The notes: generated by a model not told the origin, from the letters alone. A stretch of DNA of 63,883 bases, filler included, from Globobulimina sp. (GCA_003354225.1; 14 parts of 14 records of this genome joined end to end with filler, not necessarily neighbours in it), one strand, 5' to 3'; counted from the first letter of the whole stretch, positions 4,478 through 59,418 are shown. A program made the numbers and translations.

Positions 4478-4577
4478 NNNNNNNNNNNNNNNNNNNNNNN
4501 NNNNNNNNNNNNNNNNNNNNNTTAATTAATTAANNNNNNNNNNNNNNNNNNNNNNNNNNNNNNNNNNNNNNNNNNNN
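4478..4577. other. Artificial contig linker (N-run + TTAATTAATTAA + N-run); 13 such linkers in the window
   Basis: Identical 100-nt spacers also at 9055, 13629, 18202, 22775, 27348, 31920, 36491, 41057, 45623, 50189, 54754 and 59319; contig lengths fall from 4477 to 4465. Confidence 0.99.
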
Positions 4578-5426: not shown

Positions 5427-5491
5427 ACCACCCCAACCACTGTATTTCCGCGTAGCAAATTCAAAGAAACAAACAATTGCAAATTGATCAG

Positions 5492-7852
5492 ATGTCATAT
5501 CCAAGCGATCATCCATCAATAAGTGGTGATATCAATTTAAGTAAACATGATTCACCAAAGGATTCATCTGAATTAGAACGGTGGTATTTTAATGGACATT
5601 TTACTGGACATTTAAATGAGAATAATAATGATTTTTCATTATTTCTTTGTTTTTTTCGTATTACTTCAAAACGAAAAAAATGTGGATATGCTTATGCAAT
5701 CAAAATATCCATTTACAATAAAACCACAAATAAAGTTTATCACAAATGTATTTTCCCGAAACTGATGTGTAAAATGATGAGTGCTGAATATGATGATATT
5801 CGAAAAGCAGGAAAAGAGACACTTTCATTTATTGAAGAAGAATACGCAAGATTTTTCAAAGAAAATATTTCTCCCAAACCAGATTTCTTAGCAATTAATG
5901 ATCCCATTGTTAAAAAAAATGAATTATTTATTCAAATTGATGATAACCTATTAACAAAAGATAAGTTTGGTAATTACATCATTAAAATTGATACAACAAT
6001 GTATGAAGAAAGTGAAGAAACAATCAAACTTGATTTATTATTCAAACCATTTAAAAGAAAAGCACTCAGACAAGGATATCATGGATATGTTAAAGATACG
6101 CAAACATTTTATTACAGTTTAACCAATTTAAACATATTTGGAAAAATGCAAATTAATAATCAAATGATTGAAACTGTTAATGACAGTAAAAATAAAGGAT
6201 GGTATGATCATGAATTTGGCCCAAACAAGAAATTAGGTTGGAACTGGATCTCGATTCAATTGGATAATAATGTTGAAATTTGTTGTTCACTTCTCTCCAT
6301 TGAACATGAGAAAAATGGAAATGGTCGAATTATAGTTACTGATGCTGCGCCATTAAATGATAATAATAATTCCACGCGGGTGATTCATGAAAATGACAAT
6401 ACAATAACGTTTAATGAATCGAAGGAAAATTTATTTGTATCACATAAATCGTTTGATTCTTATCCGACAAAATTTAAGCTTGAATTGGATGATATTAAAT
6501 ATGGTCACATTGAGTTAGAAGTAGAATGTGCGTTAAACAGTGCGGATATTAATTGTGAAATAATGTTTATCCCGTTAAGAAATACATTTTGGGAATCACC
6601 TGTTAATATTAGTGGTTATATTAATAATGGTCAAACAAAAGTAAATGGTGTTGGATTTGTTGAAATGGTGAATGCAACAGATAACAAACATGCGTTTAAT
6701 GAAAAAATGATCATGAAAAAAGTGCAAAGTTATTTAGCAGATGTTGCAATACATTCAATTTATCCAAAATTAAATAATTTTGATTTTGAACATTTAAAAA
6801 AATTAATGTTATTACCAGGATTTGAAGGGAAGACAAATTTTAATGAATTAGATTTAAATAAGTTACATTTAAATTTATTAAACCCTGTTCTTGAATTAGT
6901 AAAACAGAAAGGAAAAGGTTGGAGATCATTGGCTGGAATTATAGCAGCAAATATTGCAAACAATAATTTTAATCCTACACAGATGGCATTAAAACAACTG
7001 GTCGCATTACAAGAATTAACTCATGTTGGTTCATTAATTCTTGATGATATTCAAGATGATTCATCACAACGAAGGGGTATGCAAAGTATTCATGTAAAAT
7101 ATGATATTAAAACAGCAATTAATTGTGGTAATGGAGCAATGATGTTATCTGAATATATTTTTCGTGATATGGGTCTTAATGAAGATCAAAAATTAAAAAT
7201 GTATCAACAATTATTTCGTTGTTATCGTGGTGCATGGATTGGACAATCATTAGATTGTGCTACATTAGGTTATATGATGGAGGATGTGATTGAAAATAAA
7301 AACAATGAGGTTGATTTAGCAATTAACAGATTAACACAAATTCATTCATTAAAGACAGGTGTACCAGTGAGTTCTGGAGCATGTATGGCTGCGATTGTTG
7401 CAGATGAGAATGTTACAGATGATACACTTAATGCTCTTGCAAATTATTTTGAGAATTTAGGTATTTCATTTCAAATATTAGATGATGTAAAAAATTTAAT
7501 GGGTGTATTTAGAATAGTTGACACAAATAATGAAAAAGCTATTCCATTGAAAAATATTGGTGAAGATATTACAGAAGCAAAGGTTACTTATCCATTATTG
7601 TATGCGATGAAATTTATTAAAAATAAAAAAGATAAATTGGAATTATGGAACAGAATTAAAAAAAATCCAACGGATTTTAATGACATTAAAAGTATTATAA
7701 ATGTTATTAAAGATTGTGGTGCAATACAACATTGTAAAGACATTGCATTACAGAAAATGGAAAAAGAAAATGAAAAGATATATCAAGTATTTGGACCATC
7801 ATTTTATACCATTTTGATGGTTGCATTTGGTAAATTTCTTTTGAATAATTGA
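5492..7852 (+). CDS. Fusion of a CrtC/AttH (lipocalin-like hydratase/cyclase fold) domain and a trans-isoprenyl diphosphate synthase
   Basis: N-half: ERWYFNGH, FYYS, GWYDHEFG, GWNWISIQLDN, FWESP, GVGFVE. C-half: GKGWR, ELTHVGSLILDDIQD..RRG (FARM), GQSLD, KTG, FQILDDVKN (SARM), GEDITEAKVTYP. Intronless. Confidence 0.85.
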   Translation: MSYPSDHPSISGDINLSKHDSPKDSSELERWYFNGHFTGHLNENNNDFSLFLCFFRITSKRKKCGYAYAIKISIYNKTTNKVYHKCIFPKLMCKMMSAEYDDIRKAGKETLSFIEEEYARFFKENISPKPDFLAINDPIVKKNELFIQIDDNLLTKDKFGNYIIKIDTTMYEESEETIKLDLLFKPFKRKALRQGYHGYVKDTQTFYYSLTNLNIFGKMQINNQMIETVNDSKNKGWYDHEFGPNKKLGWNWISIQLDNNVEICCSLLSIEHEKNGNGRIIVTDAAPLNDNNNSTRVIHENDNTITFNESKENLFVSHKSFDSYPTKFKLELDDIKYGHIELEVECALNSADINCEIMFIPLRNTFWESPVNISGYINNGQTKVNGVGFVEMVNATDNKHAFNEKMIMKKVQSYLADVAIHSIYPKLNNFDFEHLKKLMLLPGFEGKTNFNELDLNKLHLNLLNPVLELVKQKGKGWRSLAGIIAANIANNNFNPTQMALKQLVALQELTHVGSLILDDIQDDSSQRRGMQSIHVKYDIKTAINCGNGAMMLSEYIFRDMGLNEDQKLKMYQQLFRCYRGAWIGQSLDCATLGYMMEDVIENKNNEVDLAINRLTQIHSLKTGVPVSSGACMAAIVADENVTDDTLNALANYFENLGISFQILDDVKNLMGVFRIVDTNNEKAIPLKNIGEDITEAKVTYPLLYAMKFIKNKKDKLELWNRIKKNPTDFNDIKSIINVIKDCGAIQHCKDIALQKMEKENEKIYQVFGPSFYTILMVAFGKFLLNN

Positions 7853-9054: not shown

Positions 9055-9207
9055 NNNNNNNNNNNNNNNNNNNNNNNNNNNNNNNNNNNNNNNNNNNNTT
9101 AATTAATTAANNNNNNNNNNNNNNNNNNNNNNNNNNNNNNNNNNNNNNNNNNNNTGACACCTTCCCATTAGGCTAACTTGGACCACATTCCCCTTAGGGT
9201 TTGGTTC

Positions 9208-9370
9208 AAATAAACCTCGACCAACATTGTCACCAAGTCCCGTCATAAATAAATCTCGACCACCATGTCACCAGCCGTCGCCAAGTCCCCCGTTAGAAAT
9301 AAATACATGACTACCCACCAGCGGACCAGGTTTTGGTCGAAATAAACCTCGACCACCACGTCACCAAGTC
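9208..9370. repeat. Degenerate tandem repeat, 4 units of ~40-50 bp (AAATAAACCTCGACCACCA..GTCACCAAGTC)
   Basis: Units start at ~9208, 9247, 9297 and 9340; the last includes the dyad TGGTCGA-N8-TCGACCA. Confidence 0.75.
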
Positions 9371-10002
9371 ATAGCCTATATACGCCTCCACTGGTCATAT
9401 ATTAAATATATGATCATGCAGTTGCTGGGAAAACTGTCGCGGCGTCATGATCTCGATAATATTTATATTATCGATAATATATATATGATCTCAATAATAT
9501 ATATATTAGTAGATAAAATATATATTAAAATCCTAAGGGAATCTTCGCTGTGTAATATATATATTAGCCTTAATCATATATTATCTAATCATATGCGTAT
9601 ATCTTATCCGGAACATTACTGTAAAGTTTTCCATGTCGACTGTCGAGCATTTAATGTTAAACATGAAAGAGCTGTGCAGTTCGAAAACCTCCACAATGCA
9701 GTTCCACAACACCAAAAGCTCCACATTGCTGATCCGCAAAATATGCGCCAGTCTCGATATTACTGAATAATTATGGGTAAAATACTATTTGCAAAAGAGC
9801 ATCCGGTTTTCAACGTCAGATTTTTATTGTTTCTGAGAAACGAAGGCAAACCTATATTATGTTTACCTTTATCAGTCACCAGAAACGGTTTGCTTACACC
9901 TTACCCCAATAAAAATCTGAAGACAGGATGCTCTCTTTGTGGACTTATCGAATTGGTTGAAAATTTAAGCGCTGTTTTACAGCGTTTTTAAAAAATCAGT
10001 AC

Positions 10003-10018
10003 TTATCGGAGAGGCCTA
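10003..10018. mobile_element. Putative transposon terminus TTATCGGAGAGGCCTA (second exact copy at 33343-33358)
   Basis: Exact 16-mer shared by two unrelated contigs, each at the right edge of a gene-free tract, ending in TA. Confidence 0.35.
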
Positions 10019-10034
10019 ATAAGAACAACCCCGA

Positions 10035-11054
10035 ATGATGTCAAACTTGAAGACTTGCTTCAAGCTATTTATTGCTATGATAGTTATGTTAGTGATCAGT
10101 ATGACAGTTATCATTCGGCTGCAGAATGATGTGTTGAATACCAAATGCGATCCGTGTAAGATGAAAGAGTCCCAATTTATCCCCAACAATTTTGATGCTC
10201 GATTACAAGCAGCAAACTTCAAACCGCATAAACTCAGAGTAAAGAAATGGAATTATGTTTATTTCCAACACATTCGAAAAACCGGTGGCTCATCAGTTGT
10301 GGCAGTATTTTATGAAAATAAATTGTGTTCGTCGGATAGATGCATAATATGGTCACCTTTTTATGGACTGACTAAAAACATTGACGATCATAAGCGAGAA
10401 TGTGACAAAAGAGGCATGAAATTTATTGTGATCGAATATTATCCATTTTACACATCCCATTATTTGATCCATAGAGACGACACATGGAATGATGTCTTAT
10501 TAACCACCATTTTGAGAGATCCATTGCAAAGAATATGGAGTGATATTGGTTCCGGCGCAACATTCCATTGCGGCCACAGGAATACCACCATTGAGGAATA
10601 TAAAAAGCATTTAGGCGATGAGCAGTTTCTCATTCAATGTGCAAAGGACTTCCAATATGGATACACTTCAAATGTGTATGTGAAAATATTCAGTGGCAGT
10701 TGGAAATACGCCATAAATGATCCTGAACGACATTTGAAAAAATATAATATTGATTATAGCCCAACGCATAGTGCGCATGCCGTGCATCTGGCTGTGGCTA
10801 AGAGCATTATTCTGGAATTTGATGTTATTTTACTGCTGGAAATGTGGCAAGAAACAAGTATTCAGCTGAAATGTAATAATTTGCTGCATACAGCATTGGA
10901 AAAAATCAACAGAGGATATAACAACTATAAATTGGATGATTTCCCCAAACTCAAAGAAGTGCTGTACGAACTGAATAGATATGATATGGAATTTTATGCG
11001 TTTGCTAAACAACTGGCTCTGCGGAAATCGCAGCAATGCATATTGTACGCATAA
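10035..11054 (+). CDS. Golgi-type (type II membrane) sulfotransferase family protein
   Basis: N-terminal TM; 5'-PSB motif FQHIRKTGGSS; 3'-PB motif ILRDPLQRIWS; C-terminal NRYDMEFYAFAK. Confidence 0.85.
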   Translation: MMSNLKTCFKLFIAMIVMLVISMTVIIRLQNDVLNTKCDPCKMKESQFIPNNFDARLQAANFKPHKLRVKKWNYVYFQHIRKTGGSSVVAVFYENKLCSSDRCIIWSPFYGLTKNIDDHKRECDKRGMKFIVIEYYPFYTSHYLIHRDDTWNDVLLTTILRDPLQRIWSDIGSGATFHCGHRNTTIEEYKKHLGDEQFLIQCAKDFQYGYTSNVYVKIFSGSWKYAINDPERHLKKYNIDYSPTHSAHAVHLAVAKSIILEFDVILLLEMWQETSIQLKCNNLLHTALEKINRGYNNYKLDDFPKLKEVLYELNRYDMEFYAFAKQLALRKSQQCILYA

Positions 11055-11141
11055 AACATAAGTGATCACTGATTGTTTGGCAATGTATTTGTATTATTAT
11101 TTGGATTTGATGAAAATTAAAAAAAGGTTTTCTGTTTGCAA

Positions 11142-12926
11142 ATGTCTTCAAGTTCAAGAGCAAGTCGTGTTTGTGTATCGGTTTTGGACCACTTACCTTC
11201 AACAACGACCCATAAACATAAATTGCTAAAAGAAATCCCAAAGTTTAGCAACCAGTTAGTGCTGGACAGGCAGAGAAATGAAAAGAAGTTAACATCCGAA
11301 AAAAGACGGAATGTGTCATTGCAAGAAAGAGATACGACATTATATCATAACCCATTGTTATCAAAGGAATTGCGATCATATAGGTACAAAATACAAAATT
11401 GTGACTCGATTGATGAAATATATAATATTTTCTCACAGTTATCTTACATTTCAAATTCAAAAACAAGTTCATCCACGGATTTATCCGTATTATTTGATGA
11501 TTTTATGAAACAATTTATTAAATTACAAAAACATACTGAATGTCTCAATGTTTTGCAATTGATGTATAATAAGCACATTCCGCGTAGTTTAGCATCGTAT
11601 AATATTATATTTGATGGCTATGTAAGTTATGGCCACAGCCACACTGCGATGGAAATATATTATCAATACATGTTAAAAAATGATGTTGCTTTGCATCCAA
11701 ACATAATTACTGTCAATACATTGCTTTGTGGCTGCAAACAGAAAGCTGACATTTATCTCATTAAACAAATATGGACAGATATTGTCATTCCTTTTCAAAT
11801 AACGCCAAATATCGCCACATATATTCTATTAATTACTATCTATGGCAGAGCTGGATTGCCTGACCATTGTTATGCTTTATTTGCAAATATGATTGTTAAG
11901 GTTTGTATGTTTAGAATTTTCTATAATTATTAATTTACATTTACATTCAAAAAATTAAAGGAAGGATTGAGAGCAAATACAGGTATTTGTGGCGCATTGA
12001 TGAATGCGTATGCAATGAAAGGAGATGTAAAGCGTTGTTATCAGATACTAAAATATATGGAAACGAACGGAATTAAGATCACAATCGTCGAATATTGCAC
12101 TTTGATGAAATGTTACTTATGGAATGAACAGCCATTGATCGCATTAAATGTTTATCATAAATATCTATTAAAACTCATTAATGAATCGGTGGGCGATAAA
12201 ACGATCAAAATTATGGCAAGTATGAGAATGACATGTTATTCCAAACTGATCCAAGGAATACTGGGTAAGCATTACAATAATAACAAGGATAAAATTAAAC
12301 ATTTGGAAGAAGCAGATATTGGAAATGTAAAATATTATTTTAAAATGATAGTGCAACAAATTCCATTTGATGTTAAATTGCAAAGTAAGAATGATGCGAA
12401 TAATTTTTATGATTATTTGGATGACAATTTGCTGCAAAGAATGTTAAATACATTGATTATAATGAATGAAAATGAATGTTTTCTGAATGAAAATTACGAA
12501 AATGAAATGTTAACCTTTTTAGAAAATGGATTAAAAAACAATAAATTTGCATTTTGGAATTCAAAAAAAAAAAATATGATCGATTTTCATAATTTTTGGT
12601 CGAAAAATTGCGTATTAATATTAAGATATTTTGTGAGTTTTGAAAGGAAATATATTCAAAATACACTCAATTATGAGATTAAAATAATTGTCGGAAGTGG
12701 CAGTCATTCGGATAAAAATATTCGAAAAGATAAACATAAAAATGATATTCAATCAATACCAATTTCTCAGGCTATTTTGGAAGAAGTATTACATTGGAAT
12801 CCAGCCGTTAAAATCTACAAACTTGAAAATGAGGCTGTCTTAGCTTTAGATTCGACCGATTTAAAGCATTTCCTTCAGCAAAATGCAAATAAATCACCAT
12901 GGTTTAAACATCGTGCACCAAAATGA
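11142..12926 (+). CDS. PPR-SMR protein; exons 11142-11900 and 11961-12926
   Basis: P-type PPR repeats (SYNIIFDGY, PNIITVNTLL, PNIATYILLI..YGRAG, GALMNAYA); 60-nt GT-AG intron joins the two ORFs in frame; SMR-like IDFHNF...IKIIVGSGSHS. Confidence 0.8.
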
Positions 12927-13254
12927 CGTACAAAATGATTCATTAATATATATATATATATATACGTTCGAAATTCACACTGCAGTGACAACTATTGGGC
13001 TATATAATTTATTTGTGTCGATGTGTAAGTGGTTTAGTTGGTGAAGCTGCCTTAGAAATATCAAATCACAAACACAACAAAATAATCACAGCTTTGCTGT
13101 GGCTTTTCATCTACCACCACCTAAAAGCAATAGCAAAATGTGAATGTTCAAGCAACAAATTGGTAGACCATAGTCACTTAAAACATGAAAGAAAAAATAT
13201 TTAAAAAAAATTCAACATTCAACAAATATATATGATATTATTGATATATGATAA

Positions 13255-13628
13255 TTATAGTGATGGATTGATAGATTCTTGTTGATTATTAGTCGAATCA
13301 TCTGTTCTTTGAATAAATTCTTCATATTGCTCAGATGTAACCTGTCGGGATGCAAAGCAGGTAATTTCTTTTGGTTTCGCACTTTCTTCTTCTTGTTCAG
13401 TATCATCGCTGCCATCCATTTCCTCGTCACAGCCATAATTATGCACCACAAAGGCGTCATAATTTTGTCTCATCCACGCAGATAATGGCTGTTCCAATTG
13501 CGGGTCGGTTACAATGGCACGGATCTTCGGACCATCCAGCATTGAGCTAAAAGCTTGTAAAACATCTACAAATGCAACATACCAAATGCATTCATCCCCA
13601 TCCTCGTTCTTATTCGTTTTGTGCAGAT
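13255..13628 (-). CDS. Hypothetical protein, 3' fragment (5' end beyond contig)
   Basis: Frame open from the contig edge; acidic C-terminal region. Confidence 0.5.
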
Positions 13629-41156: not shown

Positions 41157-41275
41157 GGAAAAGCATTTGTTGCCAAACAAGCTGAAGATCTCAAAAATCT
41201 GTTGGATGATATTCCAATTCCTTCAACAAGTATATTGAAGTAAATGTGTTTGTGTTGCATTTCATAATTTGTTGA
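41157..41275 (+). repeat. 119-bp exact terminal direct repeat of contig 41157-45622 (other copy 45504-45622)
   Basis: The first and last 119 nt of the contig are identical, implying a 4347-bp circular or tandem unit. Confidence 0.95.
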
Positions 41276-41431
41276 ATATTACAAACTTTAAACTATGATT
41301 CTTAATTTGTGAATATCTTTCATTTAATATCACATACACACTCAACTCAAACATATTAATCACAACCAAATTAAAAAAAAATAAAACAACACTAATTATA
41401 ACAATATCATATATATATACATCATACAAAA

Positions 41432-42117
41432 TTAACAGTCAATGGGTTGGCCAGATGGTAAAGCTTTCAATTGCATAGTTTGTATTTTTTCAATCTCATT
41501 TGTTCTGTCATATAAACTGGAATTAAAATCAACAAACGATGCATTAAATGAACACTGTGAGTCTTCAGACCTATTGCAAACGTCTGGTATTTTATTTGTT
41601 AAATGTCCCTCTTTCAAGAAATTCCTAAATTTATTGCTTGATTTAAATCTTAAAAATGAATCCGAAGCAATGGTGACATATATTTCATGAAATGACGCAT
41701 CGAATAGGAATATTTTGGATAATGGAGAAAGTGCAGAAAATATTTTATTTTGAAATAAGTTTTTTAAATTTAATCTATTTTCATGTGATATATTGATGCA
41801 ATATGGCGAATAATCGGCGATAAATTTATCAAAAATATGTCTGGCCGCTTCTTTAATATTGACATTATTAAAAGATGTAGGGATTGGAATGAAATCTTGT
41901 GTTAACGGAGTAACAATTTCTGAAATATCACATCCTAAATCAAAATCGATTGAATCTCGCACAATATCAATATTTATCCGATTTGAAAATTTCAATGAAT
42001 TTCTTTCTGATCGCTCTGGCAATGAAATGATACTTTTTCTATCTGTATTTTCACATATTTTCTCATTATGGCCGCTAAATATCGATTGTAATATGGATAG
42101 TGAAGGAAAATGATAAT
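41432..42117 (-). pseudogene. C-terminal RGS-domain fragment (no start codon or 5' part)
   Basis: AARHIFDKFIADYSPYCINISHENR...LFDASFHEIYVTIASDSFLRFKSS is a clear RGS C-half; the frame begins after a stop at ~42118 with no Met. Confidence 0.65.
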
Positions 42118-42135
42118 GTCACACAAAAAAACATA

Positions 42136-44454
42136 ATGTCACACACAAGGAAAATCAGTTTGGCACATTTTTATGATCCTACAATTCCACAAATATGTTT
42201 CACGATTCATGTACAATTTACTGTTTTGGAATTGAGGCAATATCTTATTACAACCTACAATTTACCAACAACGGTACAACAGATTGAACTGTGGATTTCA
42301 CCAAATTCCGACAAGTCTACAGTTCCACAGCATGATAATCATAAACTATTATTCAAACTGTTCAAACGTGTTCCAACTCATTACAATTACCATTGGATAT
42401 ATTGGTTTAATAAGACAGATTTTCTCAATAAATTTCAAAAATGGGTGTTTTGGAGCAATGTTAAACACTTTGCAAAATGTTATAAATATAATGTATCGAA
42501 TCCAGTTGCAATCTCATTCAAAGATTTAGTACGATGCCATCGAACCGTCGCTTACCAAACACCATACATAATACCCGCAACCAATGGAGTATTTGATAGC
42601 AAATACACTCTCAACCAGATGTATCAAAAAATGATTGAATTCAACCAAACTGAAACTATGCATTGCAACATATATGGCAATAAATTTAAATATTCGAAGG
42701 ATGTCAACAATATTTATTTTCATTTCGCATTCAACGATAAGCATATTGTGGTCGAAGATAATTATCATAGATCGCTACATGCAATAATCACTGATGAGGC
42801 TGCAGAGGAAAAGAAAATATATAATGATAGCAACAACAACGATATTTATAATGTCGTAAATGTTGAAATCTATTGGTTGGATGCATCTGTAGTTAGAAAC
42901 ACCTTCTATGCTACTTCCAAACTGCAGTTTGCTGCCATTCATAAGCATTTACTGTATGATCTTAAAAGAAAATATGTTTATATGTCCATATTATTACCAT
43001 GCAATGCTTCAATTCGTCGTAGTGAATATGGAGCACTCTTCGAATTATCGGATGTATTGACCATCAAAATAATTAAACAATGCATTGATAAATCATGTGA
43101 ATGGTCTGTGGGGAATAGAATATATTATATTGTTCAGTGCTGTCATGATGTGACGATTGATGTGATTCTCCTTTCTGATGTTAATGACAATGATTTAATA
43201 TCAAAATATATTATTAAAACAGATGTTGGCTATAAAGTGTCCATTCGATGTATGAACAGCAATCGATTATTTTATTACGATCAATTGGAAGAAGATTTTG
43301 ATGCAATATATGCAAATATAGATAAAACTGAGTTGGGCAACAAAATATATTTCAAAGTTGAAGTGAATAATATTAAAACAAAACATGTATGTTCAAAATA
43401 AATAATATCTGTTGCAATTAATATAAAGTATATGCGATTTTGTTGACAGACTTATTGCTGTGGCACAGGTCTAAATATCTGGAGAGGCAGATTTGTAATG
43501 ATTGATAATATGACAGTGGCTGATATTAAACAGCATATTGTTTGTAGTATTTATGTCACACAGCAAGAGAGAGATGAATTGAATTTAGGAACATCAGTGA
43601 TATTTTGTGAGGGGAAATTGTTGAAAGATGATGATTTGATATGCAATATTAAAAAAGTAGGAAATGATCAATATTGGTCTTTGGATGTTTTATTCATTTT
43701 GAAAGGATTTTATTCAAAAGTTATTGTGCCACAATCATATTTAGCATGCATTAGATACTCACAATATGTGTTGACATCAATTATATGTTTATTGTATAAC
43801 AATGCATTGCTTTCATGGCCTGGAGATTTATCCGTTGTAATATCTTTTTATTTGTATGGTGATAAAGCATGGCCAATAACAAATGTGTTGAAAGAGAAAT
43901 GTACGCTTCCTGTCGGTGTGGAGGACAATGTTGAGAGTGACAGAAGTCACAGAACAATTGAAATATATCCATATGAAACTGTATCTGATTTAAAAAATAA
44001 AATGGTTGCTGCTTTGAAGGAAAACCGTTATTATGCTTATAATTTTGCGTATGATAACTCAAATTGTATCCGATTGTGTAAAAATAATGAAAAACTAAAT
44101 GCAAAAACTGTTTATGAAGCTGGACTGTTTAATGATAATATTGAATGTTATTTTAGTGAGAAAAGGAGAGTTAATCCTTTATGTGTTGATGATGAACATT
44201 TGGTATATTTGTCAAAAACGTATTCAATAAGATATAAAAATGTGGCTTACAAATCGTATTTTATCGGAATTGATTGTTTTATAAATGATACAATTGATAA
44301 TGTAAAAAGAATTCGAAAAATATCTCATGCAACTAGAATAGATGTGGATAAAATACGATTTCGTGATGCTGACAACATTGAAGCACCTCATATCACAACA
44401 GATGAACAGATGCAATATCACATTGAAAGAGGCTCCAAATTAGAGCAATATTGA
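42136..44454 (+). CDS. Protein with multiple degenerate ubiquitin-like domains; intron 43387-43449
   Basis: TVLELRQYL...QQIELW, MTVADIKQHI...IFCEGKLLKDD, ETVSDLKNKM, DTIDNVKR; 63-nt GT-AG intron in frame. Confidence 0.6.
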
Positions 44455-44618
44455 CAAATTAATTAAATGTCACATTTACTCATGTTTCTTTTTGAAAGTG
44501 TTTTCGTTGTGATACTACAGCTGCAGAATTTTCACGCAAAATCGCATTATAGTTGAAACTTTAAATTCCTTTAGTCTTCACGAATCACAACCAAACTCAG
44601 CAAAAAACAAAATACACA

Positions 44619-45590
44619 ATGAACACTGCTTTTAATTATTTCCTGCTGGTCTGCATCATGTTCATTATTAGCAAAGCTGCAGACATTTCTCTGTTTGTTA
44701 ATGACGGTCACACATCGCGTGCAATCGAGTTAGCAAACACCGCAACAGTAGAACATGTTAAACAAGACATTAGAAACTATCATGGTTACAGAGCGTCAAC
44801 AGGAGTAACATTAACATTCGCAGGACTACCATTGGATGATGATAGTGCACAGTTGTGTGATATCGGTGTTGCCCCACAAGCAACACTTCACTATACAGTC
44901 AGATTTGAATCAATTCCATTTGTATGGATTTCTGAACTTAAATGGCTCGTAGAAGATGATGAATACATAAGCGGTTTAAGTTCAGAAACCAATTTTCCAG
45001 GTTGTGAGGTCCAGTTCAAAGGCTCAGATCATCCAAGTTGTGAAATTAGCCTTGGGACAACAGATTTTTTTGGCGATTTGTACGAATGTGTTTTTACGAA
45101 ATGTAATATTCCATCTGTATACAAAGAAGATATCAGTGTAAACTTTCACAATTTGGATAATTACCACTATTTTGGCACTGGGATAGGTGCCGTTGGGTTC
45201 AAAGCTGCATTTCGAACCACGGACTTTGAAGATCAAGAAAGTCTCTTGAAAATTAATAAAACATTTTTTCCTGAATCAGAGTTATCAGACGGGTCTATGT
45301 TTATAGACCGGTCAAAATATCTGTTTGTGGATAATTCAAAGTATTCAGACGCGCTGATTCAAAATGAAACATTAGTAGGAAGTCGAGGAATATGCGATTT
45401 CGAAATTGATACATATTACAATGAAAACGCATTAATTGAGGCAACTATTGCTTTTTATCTTGATCTGCTTGAATTTGATTTGGATTTTTATTATGATGAA
45501 ATTGGAAAAGCATTTGTTGCCAAACAAGCTGAAGATCTCAAAAATCTGTTGGATGATATTCCAATTCCTTCAACAAGTATATTGAAGTAA
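44619..45590 (+). CDS. Signal peptide + ubiquitin-like domain + unknown C-terminal domain
   Basis: Hydrophobic leader to ~SKA, then ISLFV...ATVEHVKQDI...LTFAGLPLDD...LCDIGVAPQATLH (Ubl fold). Confidence 0.7.
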   Translation: MNTAFNYFLLVCIMFIISKAADISLFVNDGHTSRAIELANTATVEHVKQDIRNYHGYRASTGVTLTFAGLPLDDDSAQLCDIGVAPQATLHYTVRFESIPFVWISELKWLVEDDEYISGLSSETNFPGCEVQFKGSDHPSCEISLGTTDFFGDLYECVFTKCNIPSVYKEDISVNFHNLDNYHYFGTGIGAVGFKAAFRTTDFEDQESLLKINKTFFPESELSDGSMFIDRSKYLFVDNSKYSDALIQNETLVGSRGICDFEIDTYYNENALIEATIAFYLDLLEFDLDFYYDEIGKAFVAKQAEDLKNLLDDIPIPSTSILK

Positions 45591-45722
45591 ATGTGTTTGT
45601 GTTGCATTTCATAATTTGTTGANNNNNNNNNNNNNNNNNNNNNNNNNNNNNNNNNNNNNNNNNNNNTTAATTAATTAANNNNNNNNNNNNNNNNNNNNNN
45701 NNNNNNNNNNNNNNNNNNNNNN

Positions 45723-49891: not shown

Positions 49892-50648
49892 AAAAAATTA
49901 ATAAAAACATATTATATATAAAAGTTTTACTTTTTTATTTATTTGATCATTAAAAAAAAATGTTTGTTTTATTTTTTTTGATTCATATTTTTTGTTTTAT
50001 CATTCCTTTTTTTGTGTTGTCTCCCACTTTCTTTCTATTGTTTGCTATGTTGTTTGGATGATGGTCATTCCTTTTGTTTTTTTGTTATGTATCATATACA
50101 ATACATGATTCCCTCCGGTTTTTGTTTACAAAATCATGTATTATTTTTGTTGTAATTCCTGGATTTCTGGATTTGTTATTTACATTTTNNNNNNNNNNNN
50201 NNNNNNNNNNNNNNNNNNNNNNNNNNNNNNNNTTAATTAATTAANNNNNNNNNNNNNNNNNNNNNNNNNNNNNNNNNNNNNNNNNNNNTGGAGGAACGTG
50301 TGAATTCATATTTACAACATCTACACCCAATGCACTTCTGCCTCGTTTTCTCGATGGACATGGCTCGTTTGAAGAAGACATGATCAGAAAATAATAAAAT
50401 TAATTGACTTGAAAAAGGATTTTTGACCAAAAAAAGTCTGAAAATAGCCTATAAATCGAGCACATAAATGGAAATAATATAACCACTAACCGGAAATGAG
50501 AAAAGGCAAACAGTTAAAACCTCAAACAAAAAAACACAGATTACAAACAAAAAAAATATATTAATCCGATATTAAAATATTTTATTTACAAGAAATTGAA
50601 AATATATAAATGAAAAAAGATAAGTTTTGTGAGTAAAAAAAATACTTT

Positions 50649-53600
50649 TTATTGCAAATCATTAATTTGCAATTTTGCATTTACCTGTTTTAATAATTTA
50701 TTAATATGAATTAATTGATTATTTAATTTTTTATTTACCATTGCATTTTCTTTCAATTTATACTGAATAGATTTTATTTTTTTTTTGGCGTATTTATTAA
50801 ATAATTTCTTTGATTTTAGACATTTTTGTAATTTTTTGAGATCTTTTTGTGCTTTGTGTGAATTATCCAAATTATCAATTCCAGCTAAAAATAAACCAAT
50901 AAATATATTGCTGACAACAATGGTCACCACAGTCACATAAAAAATAAAATACATTGTTAATTTCATGGTCGTTGCCAGCGAATTCAAATACATAATTTCA
51001 TGCCATCCCTCACCAAACAACAATTGTATTAGACACAAAATAGCATATAACGGCGAATTAAAATTAGCAGCAATCGATGGTGCCACATCATACACTTCCT
51101 CGATGACAATGTCAGTCACATTATCCCCAAACAAAATGGTGCCCAATCTCGCCCACCAATAAATATACAAAAACAAAAATATTATCAATGATATAAATTG
51201 TGGAAACACTGTAAATATCGAATACGTCAATGTTTGATTCGATTTTAATAACGTAAATGTACGAATTAATATACCAAACTGAATAAAAGATATTTCAAAT
51301 CCTTGGTCATTGATACCATTACCAGTTAAACTCAAATACGCAGCCAAATATGCAATGGCAGTAAAATATATCATCACTAATTCAATTCGATGTATTAATG
51401 TCATCACATCTTTTTCCTCAATCGATAGTGGCCGGATTTCATTCAAATTATTGTTGGCCCAATGTATTTCTTGTGCGGATAATCGGACACTTTCCGCCGA
51501 TCCTTTATCCGCTGTCGCGGCAGTAAATGTTGTTTGTGTGGTAAGGTATTTATTGATCGAAGCAATTATATAATTTGGAACTGGATACGATTTCATATCA
51601 AAATATCTACCAAACCCAAACGAGAACCATCTCATATTAATATCAATGAAATTAAATACAAATAATACAATGAGGATATAGTCAATGCTGGCATCGGAGA
51701 AACCATTTAATCCCTTCAACACTGAGAATATATATGCCGGCATTACCATGGTAATAAGAATCATCGTATTATATTGCGGTCGGCGGATAAGATTACATTC
51801 TATTAATGCTTGCAACTTATTTTGTGGAGAGCTGGTTTTTGTTATACTATTTTTAAATTCTTGTCCTAATAAAAAGTTAACAAAGCCAACCAAATCAATG
51901 TCATCATCTTCTTTTTCTTCGTCTTGATCGTTATGAAAGACATCAAACACTTTGTGTCTATCGCTTAATATCGATCTGTTTATTAATTGTTTTAATTCTT
52001 CATGGTCGATGCCTTGATCGTTATTCATGTCTAACATGACAAACGCTGCGATGATACAAATTGTTTTTTGGAAATTCTCGCTTTTGCCATGCTTAATCTC
52101 CAATTCATTGAATGCACACTCAAACTGGTGAATTATTAATGGAATAAAGCAAAATGTTCCCAACATGCCGACAATAATTAAAAAACTTAACGCATAATAT
52201 CCTAAGGATTGGTTTTTTTTATAATATTCATTGTCGAATATATCATAAACAATTTTATAATTCTCCGCTGTGCTCATATAAACAAACGAGGTGACCATTG
52301 CTTCCCCGATGCTATAAAATGAATTTATTAAACGCTGCGAGTTATTCTCGTCTTGATTTGTCATAAAACCAAACAGTGAAATTGATAATATCGCAATGGT
52401 AAAAATGAAAAAAAGATACGAAGCTAACACCTTTTTACTTTTCCATAGCGCATAAAAAAAATCTTTTACAAAATTAAAAATCTGCATATTACGCAATATT
52501 AATAATCCGGGCAATATTGGCAGAATAAACGTGTATTTAAAGCCCATGAAATCCAATAAAATCAATAACAATAACAATCCATGCACAACAATGAGATAAC
52601 TGTACGGTCCTCGAAGTACAAAAAATAATGTATTGCCTGAATGCTGTTTGAAGAAATCCACATATTTATGCTTGAAGCCATAGTTAATTTCAAATAAAGT
52701 GATCAAATCTTTTTTATCTAAATCAAACTGAATATATCTTTTAATAAACACAAATATAAAATCAATGTACTCTAAAATAACGCAAGCAAGTAAACCTGGG
52801 AAAACCTGCTCGCTTTCAAACATACTCAGTATCAAATGTATACCAATAACTATTGCGACATAACTTGCATATAAATTAGACTCGAAAATATTTGAAAATA
52901 TGATTTTCTTTGTTGAATAATATTTATTTGATTGCCAGAAACATTTAAGAAATAAATATTTATCTTCCGTAGATGCAATAAACAGATTAGCGCGATTTGC
53001 ACAAAAATCCTTAGTCATTTCAGTGGTGCGCAAACCCACCATTTTGCCGTACTTCCTGTACCAAACAGCATTGGCAGAGTCGGTGATTATTCGTTTCATT
53101 TTATACATAATTTTGCCATAACGTTCCGCCTCTTCCTCCTCATCATACTCATCCTCTTCTTCCTCGTCGTTCGCGTTCGCATTCGAAGTTGAATACGTAT
53201 TTGAAATTCGCTTCAATAGCAACGCCACAGCAAATATAATGGACACACCCAACATTATCGAAAAGCGAATATCCTGAACATCCATTTTAGAAAAATCTAT
53301 GGTCCGCGACACTGTCCAGTCCACATTAAAACTTTCATGGTTATTTTCTTTAGTTTTATTTATTTCATAATACGAAATCCGCCCCGATTCCAAATGTGGT
53401 AAACCCAGCGGAACAGCCAACGACTTGGAGCCCGGTCTGCTATTTACATAATTTATTGGCAACGAACCTATCCCATGAATGGATACGATCTCTTCGCTCA
53501 TGACTCGAATGTCATACTGTGGATGGTCAGTGGCGATAAATGGTATTTGTTCCGCATCAACGCCGCCGCTAAACGTCAAGCACCCCTCCAACTGGGATGT

Positions 53601-54752
53601 ATCTGTAATTGTAATCATATCCGAACTCGCAATCATCGCTGCATCGTTTGCATTTGCTTCAAAAATCCATGAATGTTCTCTCACAGTTTCATTTTCATGA
53701 ATATTCTCCACAGAATGCACAAGTAATTGACTCAACGAATCCAACACCCAATCAATAGCTATAACCGCTAACACCTCGCCGTCCGCATTTTGTATGGTTG
53801 ACGACGCCGTGAGGCCAATGGTGGTAAGCTCCGCGAATACGTATCTGGACCATACGAGACTATATTTATCATTGTTTACAAAATTCGAGCTCGACATATC
53901 TCGAAAATCATTGGAATTATTCTGAGTGATACCGTACAAACTCATGGCTTCCTCCTTTGCTGTATCACAATTCTGCGTCAATTTGGGAGGATATGGGTCG
54001 TAATAGAAGTCTCTGAATGAAGTGCCCGGATAGGCCGTAGACATGGTGCCCGTGAAACTTTTGTCCAATGCCGCAATGTACCACGGCCGACAGCGCGGAT
54101 CATACAAATCCTGCTCATCAGTCATATCATTGTAGTCAGCCACATTGCCCTCGATCACAGCAAAAGCGCGTCTGACAAAATCAGTGGACTCATCGCGACG
54201 AAAATGCTGCAATTCGTTGGAGTTAGGGATGCGGATCGAACCTACGAATCGGCCCTCCGGAGTGCCGAAATAGATCATAAATGGAGTAAACTCGGAGTTT
54301 GGTCGAACGTACGATTTCATCATATTTATGAAAAACATATCCATGGCAACAGTATCGTTTCCATCTATCATTTGTTGATAATTCTGCCGGAGCGACTGTT
54401 CCACCATGTCGCTGGTCTCAAACATGTAATGAACTTCGTCGCCAACTTCGTGGAATTCATGCTTAGGGTAAATATCCTGCAACAACCTCTCTGTGGTGGC
54501 CTTCTCGTTGTACTCCCACATTACCGATACTATGGCCAAAGTGATTATTATTTGCGCAAAAGTGAATATTAACAATGCATTGGTATTGCAATGGCATTTT
54601 AATAAGGTTTTATGATGTTTTTTCGATGCACTTTTGAGCTCATAAGTACTGTCTTTGCTCTCATCCGGGTCTTCTGGTCCTGGCGTGAGATGAGAAGGGT
54701 TGGCCAGGCTCGAATTGGTAGTCTTTTGACTCAAAGATTTCTGACCCGACAT
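50649..54752 (-). CDS. dCache sensor domain fused to a two-pore-channel-like (2x6TM + EF-hand) cation channel
   Basis: TM, Cache (IYFGTPEGRF, YDPRCRPWY, WSRYVF..IGLTAS..GEVLAVIAIDWVL), TM, channel repeat I (pore SFYSIGEAMVTSFVYMSTAENY), EF-hand DMNNDQGIDHEE, repeat II (ANFNSPLYAILCLIQLLFGEGWHEIM, SNIFIGLFL), coiled coil. Intronless; the ATG is at the contig edge. Confidence 0.85.
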   Translation of the reverse strand: MSGQKSLSQKTTNSSLANPSHLTPGPEDPDESKDSTYELKSASKKHHKTLLKCHCNTNALLIFTFAQIIITLAIVSVMWEYNEKATTERLLQDIYPKHEFHEVGDEVHYMFETSDMVEQSLRQNYQQMIDGNDTVAMDMFFINMMKSYVRPNSEFTPFMIYFGTPEGRFVGSIRIPNSNELQHFRRDESTDFVRRAFAVIEGNVADYNDMTDEQDLYDPRCRPWYIAALDKSFTGTMSTAYPGTSFRDFYYDPYPPKLTQNCDTAKEEAMSLYGITQNNSNDFRDMSSSNFVNNDKYSLVWSRYVFAELTTIGLTASSTIQNADGEVLAVIAIDWVLDSLSQLLVHSVENIHENETVREHSWIFEANANDAAMIASSDMITITDTSQLEGCLTFSGGVDAEQIPFIATDHPQYDIRVMSEEIVSIHGIGSLPINYVNSRPGSKSLAVPLGLPHLESGRISYYEINKTKENNHESFNVDWTVSRTIDFSKMDVQDIRFSIMLGVSIIFAVALLLKRISNTYSTSNANANDEEEEDEYDEEEEAERYGKIMYKMKRIITDSANAVWYRKYGKMVGLRTTEMTKDFCANRANLFIASTEDKYLFLKCFWQSNKYYSTKKIIFSNIFESNLYASYVAIVIGIHLILSMFESEQVFPGLLACVILEYIDFIFVFIKRYIQFDLDKKDLITLFEINYGFKHKYVDFFKQHSGNTLFFVLRGPYSYLIVVHGLLLLLILLDFMGFKYTFILPILPGLLILRNMQIFNFVKDFFYALWKSKKVLASYLFFIFTIAILSISLFGFMTNQDENNSQRLINSFYSIGEAMVTSFVYMSTAENYKIVYDIFDNEYYKKNQSLGYYALSFLIIVGMLGTFCFIPLIIHQFECAFNELEIKHGKSENFQKTICIIAAFVMLDMNNDQGIDHEELKQLINRSILSDRHKVFDVFHNDQDEEKEDDDIDLVGFVNFLLGQEFKNSITKTSSPQNKLQALIECNLIRRPQYNTMILITMVMPAYIFSVLKGLNGFSDASIDYILIVLFVFNFIDINMRWFSFGFGRYFDMKSYPVPNYIIASINKYLTTQTTFTAATADKGSAESVRLSAQEIHWANNNLNEIRPLSIEEKDVMTLIHRIELVMIYFTAIAYLAAYLSLTGNGINDQGFEISFIQFGILIRTFTLLKSNQTLTYSIFTVFPQFISLIIFLFLYIYWWARLGTILFGDNVTDIVIEEVYDVAPSIAANFNSPLYAILCLIQLLFGEGWHEIMYLNSLATTMKLTMYFIFYVTVVTIVVSNIFIGLFLAGIDNLDNSHKAQKDLKKLQKCLKSKKLFNKYAKKKIKSIQYKLKENAMVNKKLNNQLIHINKLLKQVNAKLQINDLQ

Positions 54753-54900
54753 ANNNNNNNNNNNNNNNNNNNNNNNNNNNNNNNNNNNNNNNNNNNNTTA
54801 ATTAATTAANNNNNNNNNNNNNNNNNNNNNNNNNNNNNNNNNNNNNNNNNNNNTTTCTCCTGAAAATATATAATGTAACATATAACACTATATTATATAG

Positions 54901-56547
54901 GCTCATGAACGTACGTTGCATACAGATATTTTGTTTGGTTTATTGAAGGATATGTGCCGAGCCCGCAAGGATTTGAAACTGATCATCTCCTCCGCCACTT
55001 TGGAGGCGTCCAAATTCTGCGATTTTTTCGACAACGCGCCTCAATACAAAATCCCTGGCCGCTGCTTTAAAATCGACATTTATTACTTGAAAGCGCCAGA
55101 ACCTAACTACGTGGAAGCAGTCTGCATTTCAGTCTTACAGTTCCATGTCACGCAGCCATTGGGCGACGTGCTAGTTTTCCTGACGGGTCAGGAAGAGATT
55201 GATCTTTGTAAACAGTCGCTGGAGCAACGCACGCGCAAACTGGGCAAACGCATCCGGGAATTGATAATCCTGCCCATTTACGCCAACTTACCCGCGGAGC
55301 AACAGATACGTATATTCGAGCCCACTCCGGCCAATGCTCGCAAAGTGGTGCTGGCCACCAACATCGCAGAGACCTCGCTGACCATTGACAACATTGTGTA
55401 TGTCATTGATCCCGGCTTCAACAAACAAAATAATTATTGTGCGCGCACTGGCATGGACTCGTTGTGTGTCACTCCGATCAGTAAAGCTTCTGCGGAACAA
55501 AGAGCCGGTCGAGCCGGCAGAACTGCGCCGGGTAAATGTTTCCGGTTATATACGAAAGCAGCGTTTAGCAATCAAATGGAGGAGATGACCATTCCTGAGA
55601 TACAGCGCACGAACTTAGGCAATGTGGTGCTGTTATTGAAGTCGCTGGGCATTAATGACTTGATTCATTTTGATTTTATGGACGCGCCGCCCGCCGAGAC
55701 TCTGATGCGAGCATTGGAGCTGTTGTATGGTTTGGGCGCGTTGAACAATTGCGGTGAGCTCACCACTTTGGGCCGGAAGATGGCGGAGTTCCCCGTGGAC
55801 CCACAACTTAGTAAATGTTTGTGCGAATCTGGCAAATATAAATGTTGTAAAGAGATACTGACGATTGCCGCCATGTTGTCTGCCAATCATCAAATTTATT
55901 ACATTCCAAAGGATCAGGATATTGCGGCGGATACACTGCATAGAAATTTTTATAGGTTACCCGGTGGCGATCATTATACTTTGTTGAATATATACAATCA
56001 ATGGAGGGATGATACGAATTATAGTAAGAATTGGTGCGAACAGAATTTTTTACAGTTCCGAGCCTTGAACCGGGCGCGAGATATTCGAGAACAATTAGAA
56101 GGTTTATGTGAGAGAGTTGAAATTGATGCGAATGTGTCGGTTTATGATGAGAAGAATGGGAGTTATCGGAATGAGGAGGATGATGATGTTGGGAATGTCA
56201 ATGAATTTGAATATATTGGCTGCGCGTTGACTGCTGGATATTTTTTCCATACTGCGAAAATTACAAATAATGGGCAATATAAAACAATTCGATTTAATGA
56301 GGAAGTACAAATCCATCCATCGTCATGTTTGTCAAAATCTGAACTTTTGCCGAAATGGATATTATTTCATGAATTGGTTTTGACTTCGTCTGAATTTATG
56401 AGAAATGTAATTGAAATTCAACCAAAATGGATCACGGAGGTTGCTCCACACTTTTACAAAAAAGAAGCTGTCGAAAAAGCACAAGCTAAAATGCCAAAAA
56501 ATGCAATTCGGAATCAACGACTCAATCCAAATAAATATCAGTATTAA
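54901..56547 (+). CDS. DHX16: Spliceosomal DEAH-box helicase Prp2/DHX16, 5'-partial (exon starts after an acceptor at 54900)
   Basis: (DE)[53 protein letters not shown]2 and OB-fold tail; DHX16-type residues. Confidence 0.9.
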
Positions 56548-59002: not shown

Positions 59003-59418
59003 GGTGACAACTCTGACAATTTATTTAAGAAACGAGAAAGAATGGGTCAAAACAGCATATAACCAAAACGTCACCAAATCATTAACACACATTATTCATT
59101 TTTAACCAATCAATCAGTGTACAAAGATTTTAAATTGCGAGATGTTAAAGAGGTAATTAGTGACTTTGCTTTGAAGGTAATAAATAATGATTCATCTTGT
59201 CAAATCTCGCGAAAATATGACTGCTAGAATTGTCTTAACAATTATGTAATATTATATATTTGGAATTTGATCGAACGTCTTGCCACTATGTTCAAAATAT
59301 GCTGTTTGACAAGTGTACNNNNNNNNNNNNNNNNNNNNNNNNNNNNNNNNNNNNNNNNNNNNTTAATTAATTAANNNNNNNNNNNNNNNNNNNNNNNNNN
59401 NNNNNNNNNNNNNNNNNN

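Follow-up and report, generated by a model that had tools for sequence, protein, structure and literature searches.

The window analysed here, a stretch of 63,883 nucleotides (filler included) from Globobulimina sp. (GCA_003354225.1), carries on its minus strand a long open reading frame (ORF), P0001, whose product joins a dCache_1 sensor domain to a two-pore-type ion channel in one chain. The gene is authentic and nuclear, belongs to a rotaliid foraminifer and lacks its 5' end, and it represents a new architecture within the two-pore channel (TPC)/voltage-gated-like superfamily. Our reading of the protein, held at roughly even confidence, is that of a ligand-modulated, Ca2+-permeable receptor-channel in a single polypeptide; gating of such a pore by an amino acid is plausible, to judge from the sensor motif and the selectivity filters described below.

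The Cache-channel fusion

The gene and its contig have the following limits:

50289-54753: the gene's own contig, 4465 nucleotides long, bounded by artificial linkers at 50189-50288 and 54754-54853
50649-54752, minus strand: ORF P0001, 1367 codons plus stop, uninterrupted, 5'-open at the contig edge

The first-pass annotation had read positions 50649-54752 as a single uninterrupted frame, and the 1367 codons on the minus strand agree with this. Contig 50289-54753 has this ATG at its second base, which leaves the frame open at its 5' end. Moreover, a 2829-nucleotide contig of run X2 (record 16) covers 52578-54752 and extends ~654 nucleotides further upstream, whereby the 30 letters of the extension that precede the ATG make 10 further in-frame sense codons. 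Judged from sequence, P0001 is most likely without ~900-1100 N-terminal residues. The description of the protein as a one-piece channel was thus right as regards the fusion in one chain but is not supported as regards completeness, since the contig ends within the ORF and the longer relatives have further parts upstream.

The Cache-channel fusion itself is genuine. That two genes were chimerically assembled, or that the locus is a pseudogene, might be suspected from three observations. First, the G+C content at third codon positions (GC3) lies at 0.41-0.53 over residues 1-600 and at 0.15-0.38 after residue ~600 (nucleotide ~52950); the Cache half had already been described as the more GC-rich one, and the contrast extends to third codon positions. 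Second, the assembly is strongly fragmented, and third, paralogue-like contigs part from the ORF at 53088 and 53747. Both the junction and the GC3 shift are, however, bridged by contigs of two studies, namely X1 record 4 (52606-53432, with 2 differences) and X2 record 16, so that the region at ~53000-53300, at which a chimera had been feared, is crossed twice. The frame of 1367 codons is intact, and its variation is concentrated at third codon positions: of 209 variant places 40 were listed, and 35 of these fall there (binomial p 1.9e-12), including all 27 listed for the channel half. The whole length is also colinear with relatives: Nonionella stella P0003 (2286 amino acids) aligns in a single segment with 567 of 1382 columns identical (41%), covering P0001 residues 17-1364, with residue 17 paired with P0003 residue 963. 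The Cache motif and both selectivity filters occur in one chain in at least eight relatives (P0003, P0005, P0007, P0012, P0014, P0021, P0025 and P0153), each below ~50% identity. Taken together, the bridging contigs, the third-position variation and the colinear relatives make the chimera and pseudogene readings very unlikely.

Two further observations were made around the junction. The drop in GC3 near residue 600 could be a 5'-3' gradient, a trace of past paralogue recombination, or an effect of membrane-segment composition. In addition, contigs in X2, X4 and X6 match the ORF only between 53088 and 53747 (the proximal Cache module, TM2 and the acidic linker) and diverge on both sides. One contig in each of these three runs joins 53114 to 53727, skipping 612 nucleotides (204 codons, in frame). 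This join has no GT-AG ends and only 21 letters on one side; it is not taken as splicing and may be a paralogue or repeat effect.

Identity and topology of the sensor domain

The sensor half comprises the following features:

54576-54752, minus strand: cytosolic segment before the first transmembrane (TM) helix, residues 1-59, probably the continuation of a longer protein
54519-54575, minus strand: TM1, residues 60-78 (hydropathy 2.51), within the long N-terminal helix of the AlphaFold2 model
53271-54518, minus strand: dCache_1 ectodomain, residues 79-494, recognized by profile, hhalign, local hidden Markov model (HMM), AlphaFold2, Foldseek and VIA
54078-54104, minus strand: N-terminal half of the amino-acid motif (AA_motif), YDPRCRPWY, residues 217-225, with Y217, R222, W224 and Y225, and also C221
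53853-54077, minus strand: insert splitting the motif, 75 residues (226-300), containing the conserved C262
53751-53852, minus strand: C-terminal half of the AA_motif, W301...Y304...D334, aligned with Y144...D173 of PctA
53214-53270, minus strand: TM2, residues 495-513 (hydropathy 2.43), a helix in the model

The hydropathy plot has two strong helices flanking a hydrophilic stretch of 416 residues, and the 20 residues preceding TM1 contain five Lys/Arg and no Asp/Glu. By the positive-inside rule and the usual topology of the channel superfamily, residues 79-494 are predicted to be extracytoplasmic and to share with the pore loops the outer or luminal face of the membrane.

The ectodomain is a dCache_1 domain. 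Searched against 1.84 billion representatives, a family profile built from five sequences (A1) drew 849 proteins at E<=1e-3, whereby distant proteins matched it as two stretches on either side of the insert. Eighteen of these remote matches, picked by length and match pattern and not randomly, were scanned with Pfam: dCache_1 was present in 18/18 and above the gathering cut-off in 16, and all were bacterial-type histidine kinases, cyclases and HAMP proteins, with VWA in none. In hhalign the family matched 20 bacterial-type dCache_1 sensors with a probability of 99.93% (E 1.8e-35), the 335 aligned columns reaching from TM1 as far as TM2, and a local HMM made from the same 20 sensors matched P0001 at residues 59-232 (94 bits) and 298-384 (31 bits). 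Both sets were taken from the profile's own matches and hence depend on the query; the comparison of folds provides an independent test.

The AlphaFold2 model of residues 50-570 (mean predicted local distance difference test score, pLDDT, 81.5; predicted TM-score, pTM, 0.73) predicts a long helix and two PAS-like modules between the two TM helices. Foldseek gave 55 matches for it at E<=1e-3, and the top solved ones were ligand-binding domains from chemoreceptors for amino acids, in the order Tlp3 with L-leucine (1.5e-6), then PctA/B, CtaA, Mlp24/37 and a proline-binding cyclase, the probability being 1.00 to Tlp3, PctA and Mlp24. VIA-align against solved dCache domains yielded Z of 15-18.8 and a root-mean-square deviation of 3.2-4.4 Å over 220-290 residues (model residues 31-445), and Z>=8 was reached in 162 of 999 chains. 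The Cache part between two TM helices that the first-pass annotation had recognized is therefore borne out by the family profile, the profile-profile comparison and the AlphaFold2 model.

Amino-acid motif and insert

P0001 carries, by its sequence, a complete dCache_1AA motif, and amino-acid binding is predicted on this basis. YDPRCRPWY at 54078-54104 and a downstream Y-x29-D had been singled out in the annotation, and both are where it had put them, with WSRY ending at Y304 and IAID at D334. When aligned by profile with PctA (5ltx), which has the segment YDPRSRPWY, residues Y217, R222, W224, Y225, Y304 and D334 of P0001 pair with Y121, R126, W128, Y129, Y144 and D173, an alignment that taken alone is weak (E 0.083). 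These are the AA_motif residues as defined in section 5 of PMC8915833, and the register of Y217, R222, W224, Y304 and D334 with PctA upholds the proposed match to dCache_1AA.

The ligand-contact residues are near-invariant across paralogues down to ~25% identity. In an alignment of 24 family rows, R222, W224 and D334 are each kept in 23 and Y304 in 22. The same holds for two cysteines, C221 (23/24) and C262 (24/24), which probably form a disulfide. According to the portion of PMC10589655 available to us, the carboxyl contact R126 is lost in amine receptors; that its equivalent, R222, is retained therefore speaks for a ligand of the amino-carboxylate type. Of 84 modules outside the family that the profile drew in, the full motif is present in 44 and the R-W-Y-D core in 68, which argues for descent of the family from the amino-acid-sensor class, with the caveat that the motif itself helped draw in those 84 modules.

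The ~80 residues that had been reported as inserted after RxWY, where alpha2-delta carries its VWA, were found to be 75. They stand at the same site, as far as the part of PMC8915833 at hand describes it for alpha2-delta and CACHD1, both of which carry VWA there. In P0001 itself, Pfam found no VWA domain at E<=1. An insert of 59-104 amino acids is present in 24/24 family rows, and among 105 Cache modules the split motif is confined to the family's 17 B modules (modules A and B are introduced below). In the AlphaFold2 model the insert consists of a few short helices with pLDDT of 71-92.

This insert, conserved, confidently modelled and adjoining the pocket, is one reason to consider that the channel is ligand-gated not by a proteinogenic amino acid but by some other small amino-carboxylate or amine, e.g. 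γ-aminobutyric acid (GABA), taurine or a compatible solute, and that the insert may form another site. Y217 is variable within the family, and GABA, taurine, amines and purines are all ligands of dCache_1 domains whose motifs are related (PDB titles; PMC10589655, in the portion mentioned). We nevertheless regard a ligand of this sort as improbable, given the carboxyl contact R222 in 23 of the 24 rows, the full motif in P0001 and the amino-acid-bound domains at the top of the Foldseek matches.

The channel half

The remaining part of the protein is divided as follows:

52878-53213, minus strand: cytosolic linker, residues 514-625, an acidic run followed by a moderately conserved stretch
52098-52877, minus strand: channel repeat I (S1-S6), residues 626-885, from hydropathy, A5 profile, model and Foldseek
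52449-52541, minus strand: S4-I, its only charges being K739, R754 and K763
52257-52271, minus strand: filter I, TAENY, residues 828-832 (E830), aligned with the Cav3.2 filter locus
51783-52097, minus strand: inter-repeat linker with an EF-hand pair, from the A5 profile, Pfam EF-hand_1 being sub-threshold
51996-52031, minus strand: EF-type loop DMNNDQGIDHEE, residues 908-919
50853-51782, minus strand: channel repeat II, residues 991-1300, with Pfam Ion_trans and PDB matches to Cav, TPC and bacterial Nav
51207-51299, minus strand: S4-II, its only charges being R1164 and K1170
51003-51017, minus strand: filter II, FGEGW, residues 1246-1250 (E1248), aligned with the Cav1.3 filter Glu
50652-50852, minus strand: C-terminal tail, residues 1301-1367, with a heptad pattern, likely a coiled coil and one long helix in the model

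By Foldseek rank and by colinearity with TPC1, the channel half is of the two-pore type. The two six-TM repeats expected after the TM-Cache-TM part were recovered in three ways: the hydropathy peaks after TM2 are consistent with 2 x 6 TM, Pfam Ion_trans matches in 2 stretches (1.8e-15), and the AlphaFold2 model of residues 560-1367 (pLDDT 73.6, pTM 0.63) contains both. With this model, Foldseek ranks 1-15 were all TPCs (E 8e-11 to 6e-7, sequence identity 12-16%), for example human TPC2 (8e-11), AtTPC1 (TM-score up to 0.65) and mouse TPC1, whereas four-domain Nav, Cav and NALCN appeared only from rank 16.

The family channel profile found the alpha1 subunits of Cav1, Cav2 and Cav3 at 1e-42 to 1e-34 in four stretches each, plant TPC1 at ~1e-22 in two stretches and mouse TPC1 at 1.7e-17. 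That Cav stands above TPC by summed sequence score is due to its four repeats. The Cav stretches all fall on repeat II, while the TPC1 matches also span residues 769-1051, from pore I through the EF linker into the beginning of repeat II. A profile of this region alone (A5) was colinear with AtTPC1 208-478 (1.9e-8), the EF region included; each of the four pore modules of Cav3.2 was aligned by it with pore I, and in the linker it matched CHP1 (3.4e-5) and calmodulin (1.4e-4). The colinearity with AtTPC1 runs from S5-I to S6-II, and the EF and repeat I region is colinear with TPC1 only. From the fold matches, the EF linker and the presence of two repeats, layout and fold are therefore TPC-type.

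The EF-hand that had been placed between the repeats is supported by the loop at residues 908-919, by the A5 matches to CHP1 and calmodulin and by colinearity with the AtTPC1 EF region. Of the Pfam families expected for this half, Ion_trans was obtained twice, but EF-hand_1 remained below its cut-off (E 0.019; 14.9 bits vs 25.4). In plant TPC1, EF-hands between the pore subunits confer Ca2+ activation, as stated in the accessible part of 10.1101/181578. The coiled coil assigned to the C-terminus fits both the single long helix of the model and the heptad pattern of the last 72 residues, where a/d positions are 70% hydrophobic vs 33% overall.

The same part of 10.1101/181578 attributes ion selection in TPCs to uncharged Asn, unlike in Cav and Nav. 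In P0001 both filters carry Glu and, as the annotation had held, resemble Cav rather than the Asn filters of TPCs: E1248 aligns with the filter Glu of Cav1.3 (7uhf) DI-DIV, and E830 with the E/E/D/D locus of Cav3.2. Filter I reads T(A/G/Q)ENY in the family, with Glu in 8/10 rows, and filter II has Glu in 8/9 rows. The S4 helices were likewise correctly described as having almost no Arg/Lys, with three charges in S4-I and two in S4-II; one conserved Arg is kept in each of them.

With repeat I highly divergent and both S4-I and S4-II degenerate, the question arises whether the channel half is non-conducting and the protein a sensor or scaffold. This is very unlikely, as pore II is the best conserved part of the protein (47% mean identity, the C-terminal tail being lowest with 14%), the filter Glu is kept in the row counts just given, and all 27 listed variants of the channel half are at third codon positions.

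Family and distribution

The named members all come from EukProt sets of rotaliid Foraminifera, four from Nonionella stella and six from Bolivina argentea, and a 124-amino-acid fragment from Globobulimina turgida is 98% identical to residues 1117-1238, which places the gene in Globobulimina or a very near relative. The EukProt entries presumably derive from public assemblies of the two former species. These public data are polyA-mRNA Trinity assemblies, according to the part of PMC8153729 available to us.

The longer relatives have 2286-2485 amino acids and, upstream, a weak SAM-like match, a TM helix, an unsplit Cache module (A) and another TM helix; the module with the split motif is termed B. 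In module A of P0003, P0014, P0021 and P0025 the motif reads Y-R-W-Y/H-Y-E in 3/4, with the amino-group Asp replaced by Glu, and modules A and B may therefore bind different ligands. In a tree of Cache modules, module B (17 rows) forms one clade with Shimodaira-Hasegawa-like support of 99, and module A (4 rows) forms one clade with a long-branch warning. A and B as a single clade were not rejected (approximately unbiased test, p 0.62), this test being based on 48 of the 105 rows, with 7 long-branch rows dropped, without P0153, which nearly duplicates P0004, and with 28 other rows chosen at random.

A word-based search with the channel half found, besides P0003, only three four-domain channels from Symbiodinium or JGI, which were 24% identical across 11% of the query. 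The search for shorter channel-half homologues gave fragments only (Bolivina, 597 amino acids; JGI, 539; Globobulimina turgida, 124; ENA, 509) and no stand-alone channel form. A first metagenome scan contained no relative; a second one contained three distant channels and a single family fragment of 1618 nucleotides, L001, which has GEGW and an S4 with few charges. In a JGI protein of 4930 amino acids, P0029, which is not a family member, a single segment of the Cache model is partially matched 21 times at ~200-residue spacing.

Other features of the window

The window consists of 14 assembly contigs, each ~4.47 kb, placed end to end from the longest to the shortest. Between them stand linkers of 100 nucleotides (44 N + TTAATTAATTAA + 44 N), which occur at 13 sites with a spacing of ~4.57 kb (4478-4577, 9055-9154 ... 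59319-59418); TTAATTAATTAA carries stops in all six frames. Because of these linkers, the genes neighbouring the receptor-channel ORF belong to unrelated contigs, and the neighbourhood is meaningless. Contig 50289-54753 was scanned and contains no Rfam family and no tandem repeat, and the scan of the remainder of the window gave no second member of the Cache-channel family.

A DEAH-box helicase at 54916-56547 (plus strand) is cut at its contig's edge; only its C-terminal half (Helicase_C, HA2, OB_NTP_bind) is present, which explains the apparent absence of motifs I and II. A 791-amino-acid ORF at 5477-7852 (plus strand) shows an unusual pairing of CrtC/lipocalin-like domains with a polyprenyl synthetase domain. 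At 9155-13628 and 41157-45622 there are runs of same-strand ORFs with gaps of ~35-165 nucleotides, which suggest short introns in other genes. The receptor-channel ORF (4.1 kb) has no such intron-like gaps.

Proposed mode of action

By analogy with TPCs, two chains would assemble and their four pore loops would form an E-E-E-E ring, which should favour permeation of Ca2+ or divalent cations. An amino acid or a similar amino-carboxylate would occupy the membrane-distal Cache pocket on the outer or luminal face, and its binding might displace TM2, as in bacterial Cache receptors, thereby biasing pore opening. The S4 helices appear too charge-poor for ordinary voltage gating, and voltage would be a minor input; cytosolic Ca2+ may feed back via the EF-hands, as it does in plant TPC1. 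Dimer assembly, ligand identity, coupling, selectivity and membrane location are here inferred only.

A number of points speak against a receptor-channel of this kind. To our knowledge, the motif-bearing alpha2-delta does not gate its channel. On the sensor side, the first-pass annotation had expected HMM searches to detect dCache_1, and for the public models its expectation failed: Pfam gives no Cache family for P0001 at E<=1, and the PF02743 gathering score (45 bits) is not reached. Three relatives likewise obtain 12.5-18.5 bits against the Pfam Cache model, and an NCBIfam scan of P0001 had no match. Y217 is Tyr in just 13 of the 24 family rows, though aromatic in 21. The two halves of the motif are 78 residues apart (Y225-Y304), vs 13-17 in prokaryotes, and the insert could reshape the pocket; eukaryotic alpha2-delta also departs from the prokaryotic spacing, as the consulted part of PMC8915833 reports. 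On the channel side, repeat I is very divergent: as a single sequence it had 0 matches at E<=10 in a PDB search, and its profile match to repeat II is weak (probability 10%). The linker between TM2 and S1 is the second least conserved part, with 20% mean identity among 8 relatives, and it is not a HAMP domain, so that a rigid piston coupling is not evident. A further point is the shift of GC3 inside one ORF. Finally, as the N-terminus is missing, a second Cache module and the SAM-like domain are probably also involved.

In the main rival reading, the Cache domain acts as a built-in auxiliary module of the alpha2-delta/CACHD1 kind, concerned with folding, trafficking, surface stability or slow modulation by an amino-acid ligand. 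The pore itself would then respond to cytosolic Ca2+ bound by the EF-hands, and perhaps also to lipid or a remnant of voltage dependence, as TPC1 and TPC2 do. The weakly conserved TM2-S1 linker would be expected of such a protein, and so would an EF-hand linker that is conserved and colinear with AtTPC1, and a TPC-like fold across the entire channel. CACHD1 is among the fold matches (rank 28), and the motif-bearing Cache domains of alpha2-delta act on trafficking and not on gating, in the account given by the part of PMC8915833 used here. On the other hand, the closest Cache relatives are bacterial-type sensors that signal via the C-terminal TM helix (18/18 sampled), none of them alpha2-delta or VWA proteins, and the covalent link via that very helix, together with near-invariant ligand contacts, fits an acute sensor better. 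We consider an auxiliary role a serious alternative, but less likely than the ligand-modulated receptor-channel.

Novelty and significance

That no channel of this architecture has been described to its knowledge, as the annotation had stated, accords with the literature searched. In full-text searches aimed at the architecture, and in the portions seen of two Cache survey papers and a four-domain channel survey (PMC4822843 and PMC5824947 among the papers searched), no Cache domain fused to a pore-forming channel is mentioned, supplementary lists being outside the scope (Dataset S3 of PMC8915833 could hold one). In the available part of PMC8915833, all eukaryotic dCache_1 proteins found by its authors are said to carry the VWA insert; the foraminiferal Cache-channel family is an exception to this statement. 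Whether the family is, moreover, the first example of a new class of ionotropic receptor, in which an amino-acid-type Cache domain directly gates a TPC-like, Cav-filtered Ca2+ channel of the same chain, is something that we propose tentatively, as a possibility.

If so, the protein would convert chemoreception to a Ca2+ signal within one molecule. Among the extracellular sensors of bacteria, Cache domains are the most frequent, and in animals they are found mainly in alpha2-delta, the target of gabapentinoids, where the effect of ligand binding on the channel is debated. The foraminiferal protein would then be a natural experiment on the dialogue between a Cache domain and a P-loop channel, the question behind alpha2-delta and gabapentinoid action. 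Since its sensor is covalently joined to the pore, ligand binding and channel behaviour are testable in one expressed protein. It also widens the repertoire of two-pore channels, since its TPC fold is combined with an acidic filter in the style of Cav and with a large receptor that faces outward. The shells and pseudopodial networks of Foraminifera rely on Ca2+ handling, and the protein is a candidate for a direct link from external or vacuolar amino acids to Ca2+ signals in these organisms.

Comparison with known systems

Ionotropic glutamate receptors (iGluR, GLR and GluR0) are similar in function only: they too are fusions of a P-loop cation pore with a bacterial-type extracellular domain that binds amino acids. 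Their clamshell of the periplasmic-binding-protein type and their inverted 2-TM pore are both unrelated to the parts found here, and homology is not claimed.

With TPCs, the foraminiferal protein shares one chain with two 6-TM Ion_trans repeats and, presumably, the dimer, and with plant TPC1 (AtTPC1) it shares the EF-hand pair between the repeats. It differs in the N-terminal TM-Cache-TM module, of which the full-length form probably has two, and in S4-II, which keeps R1164 and K1170 only. The filters differ as well, being TAENY and FGEGW with Glu here vs uncharged Asn in TPCs (10.1101/181578, in the part cited above).

The combination of Cav alpha1 with alpha2-delta or CACHD1 offers a second likeness. 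It comprises a dCache_1 domain with YxxxxRxWY...Y...D, in alpha2-delta split by an insertion at the same place, and an acidic filter in a T-x-E-x-W context; the Cache domain would, moreover, occupy the extracytoplasmic face of the pore in both cases. In P0001, however, sensor and pore are one polypeptide, and the pore has two repeats instead of four, sharing with Cav an acidic residue in each pore loop. The insert of 59-104 residues is helical and not a VWA domain, and the Cache modules are TM-flanked and, in the relatives, tandem, not nested. In contrast to alpha2-delta, the closest relatives of the Cache sequence are bacterial-type sensor kinases and cyclases.

The bacterial dCache_1AA receptors (PctA, Tlp3, Mlp24/37, CtaA) share with the sensor half the fold, at VIA Z of 14.6-16.5, the TM-Cache-TM topology and the full AA_motif in register. 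What sets the foraminiferal sensor apart from them is its conserved cysteine pair (C221, C262) and the spacing of its motif halves (78 vs 13-17 residues). Its output, which follows without a HAMP domain, is not a methyl-accepting chemotaxis protein, a kinase or a cyclase but an ion channel.

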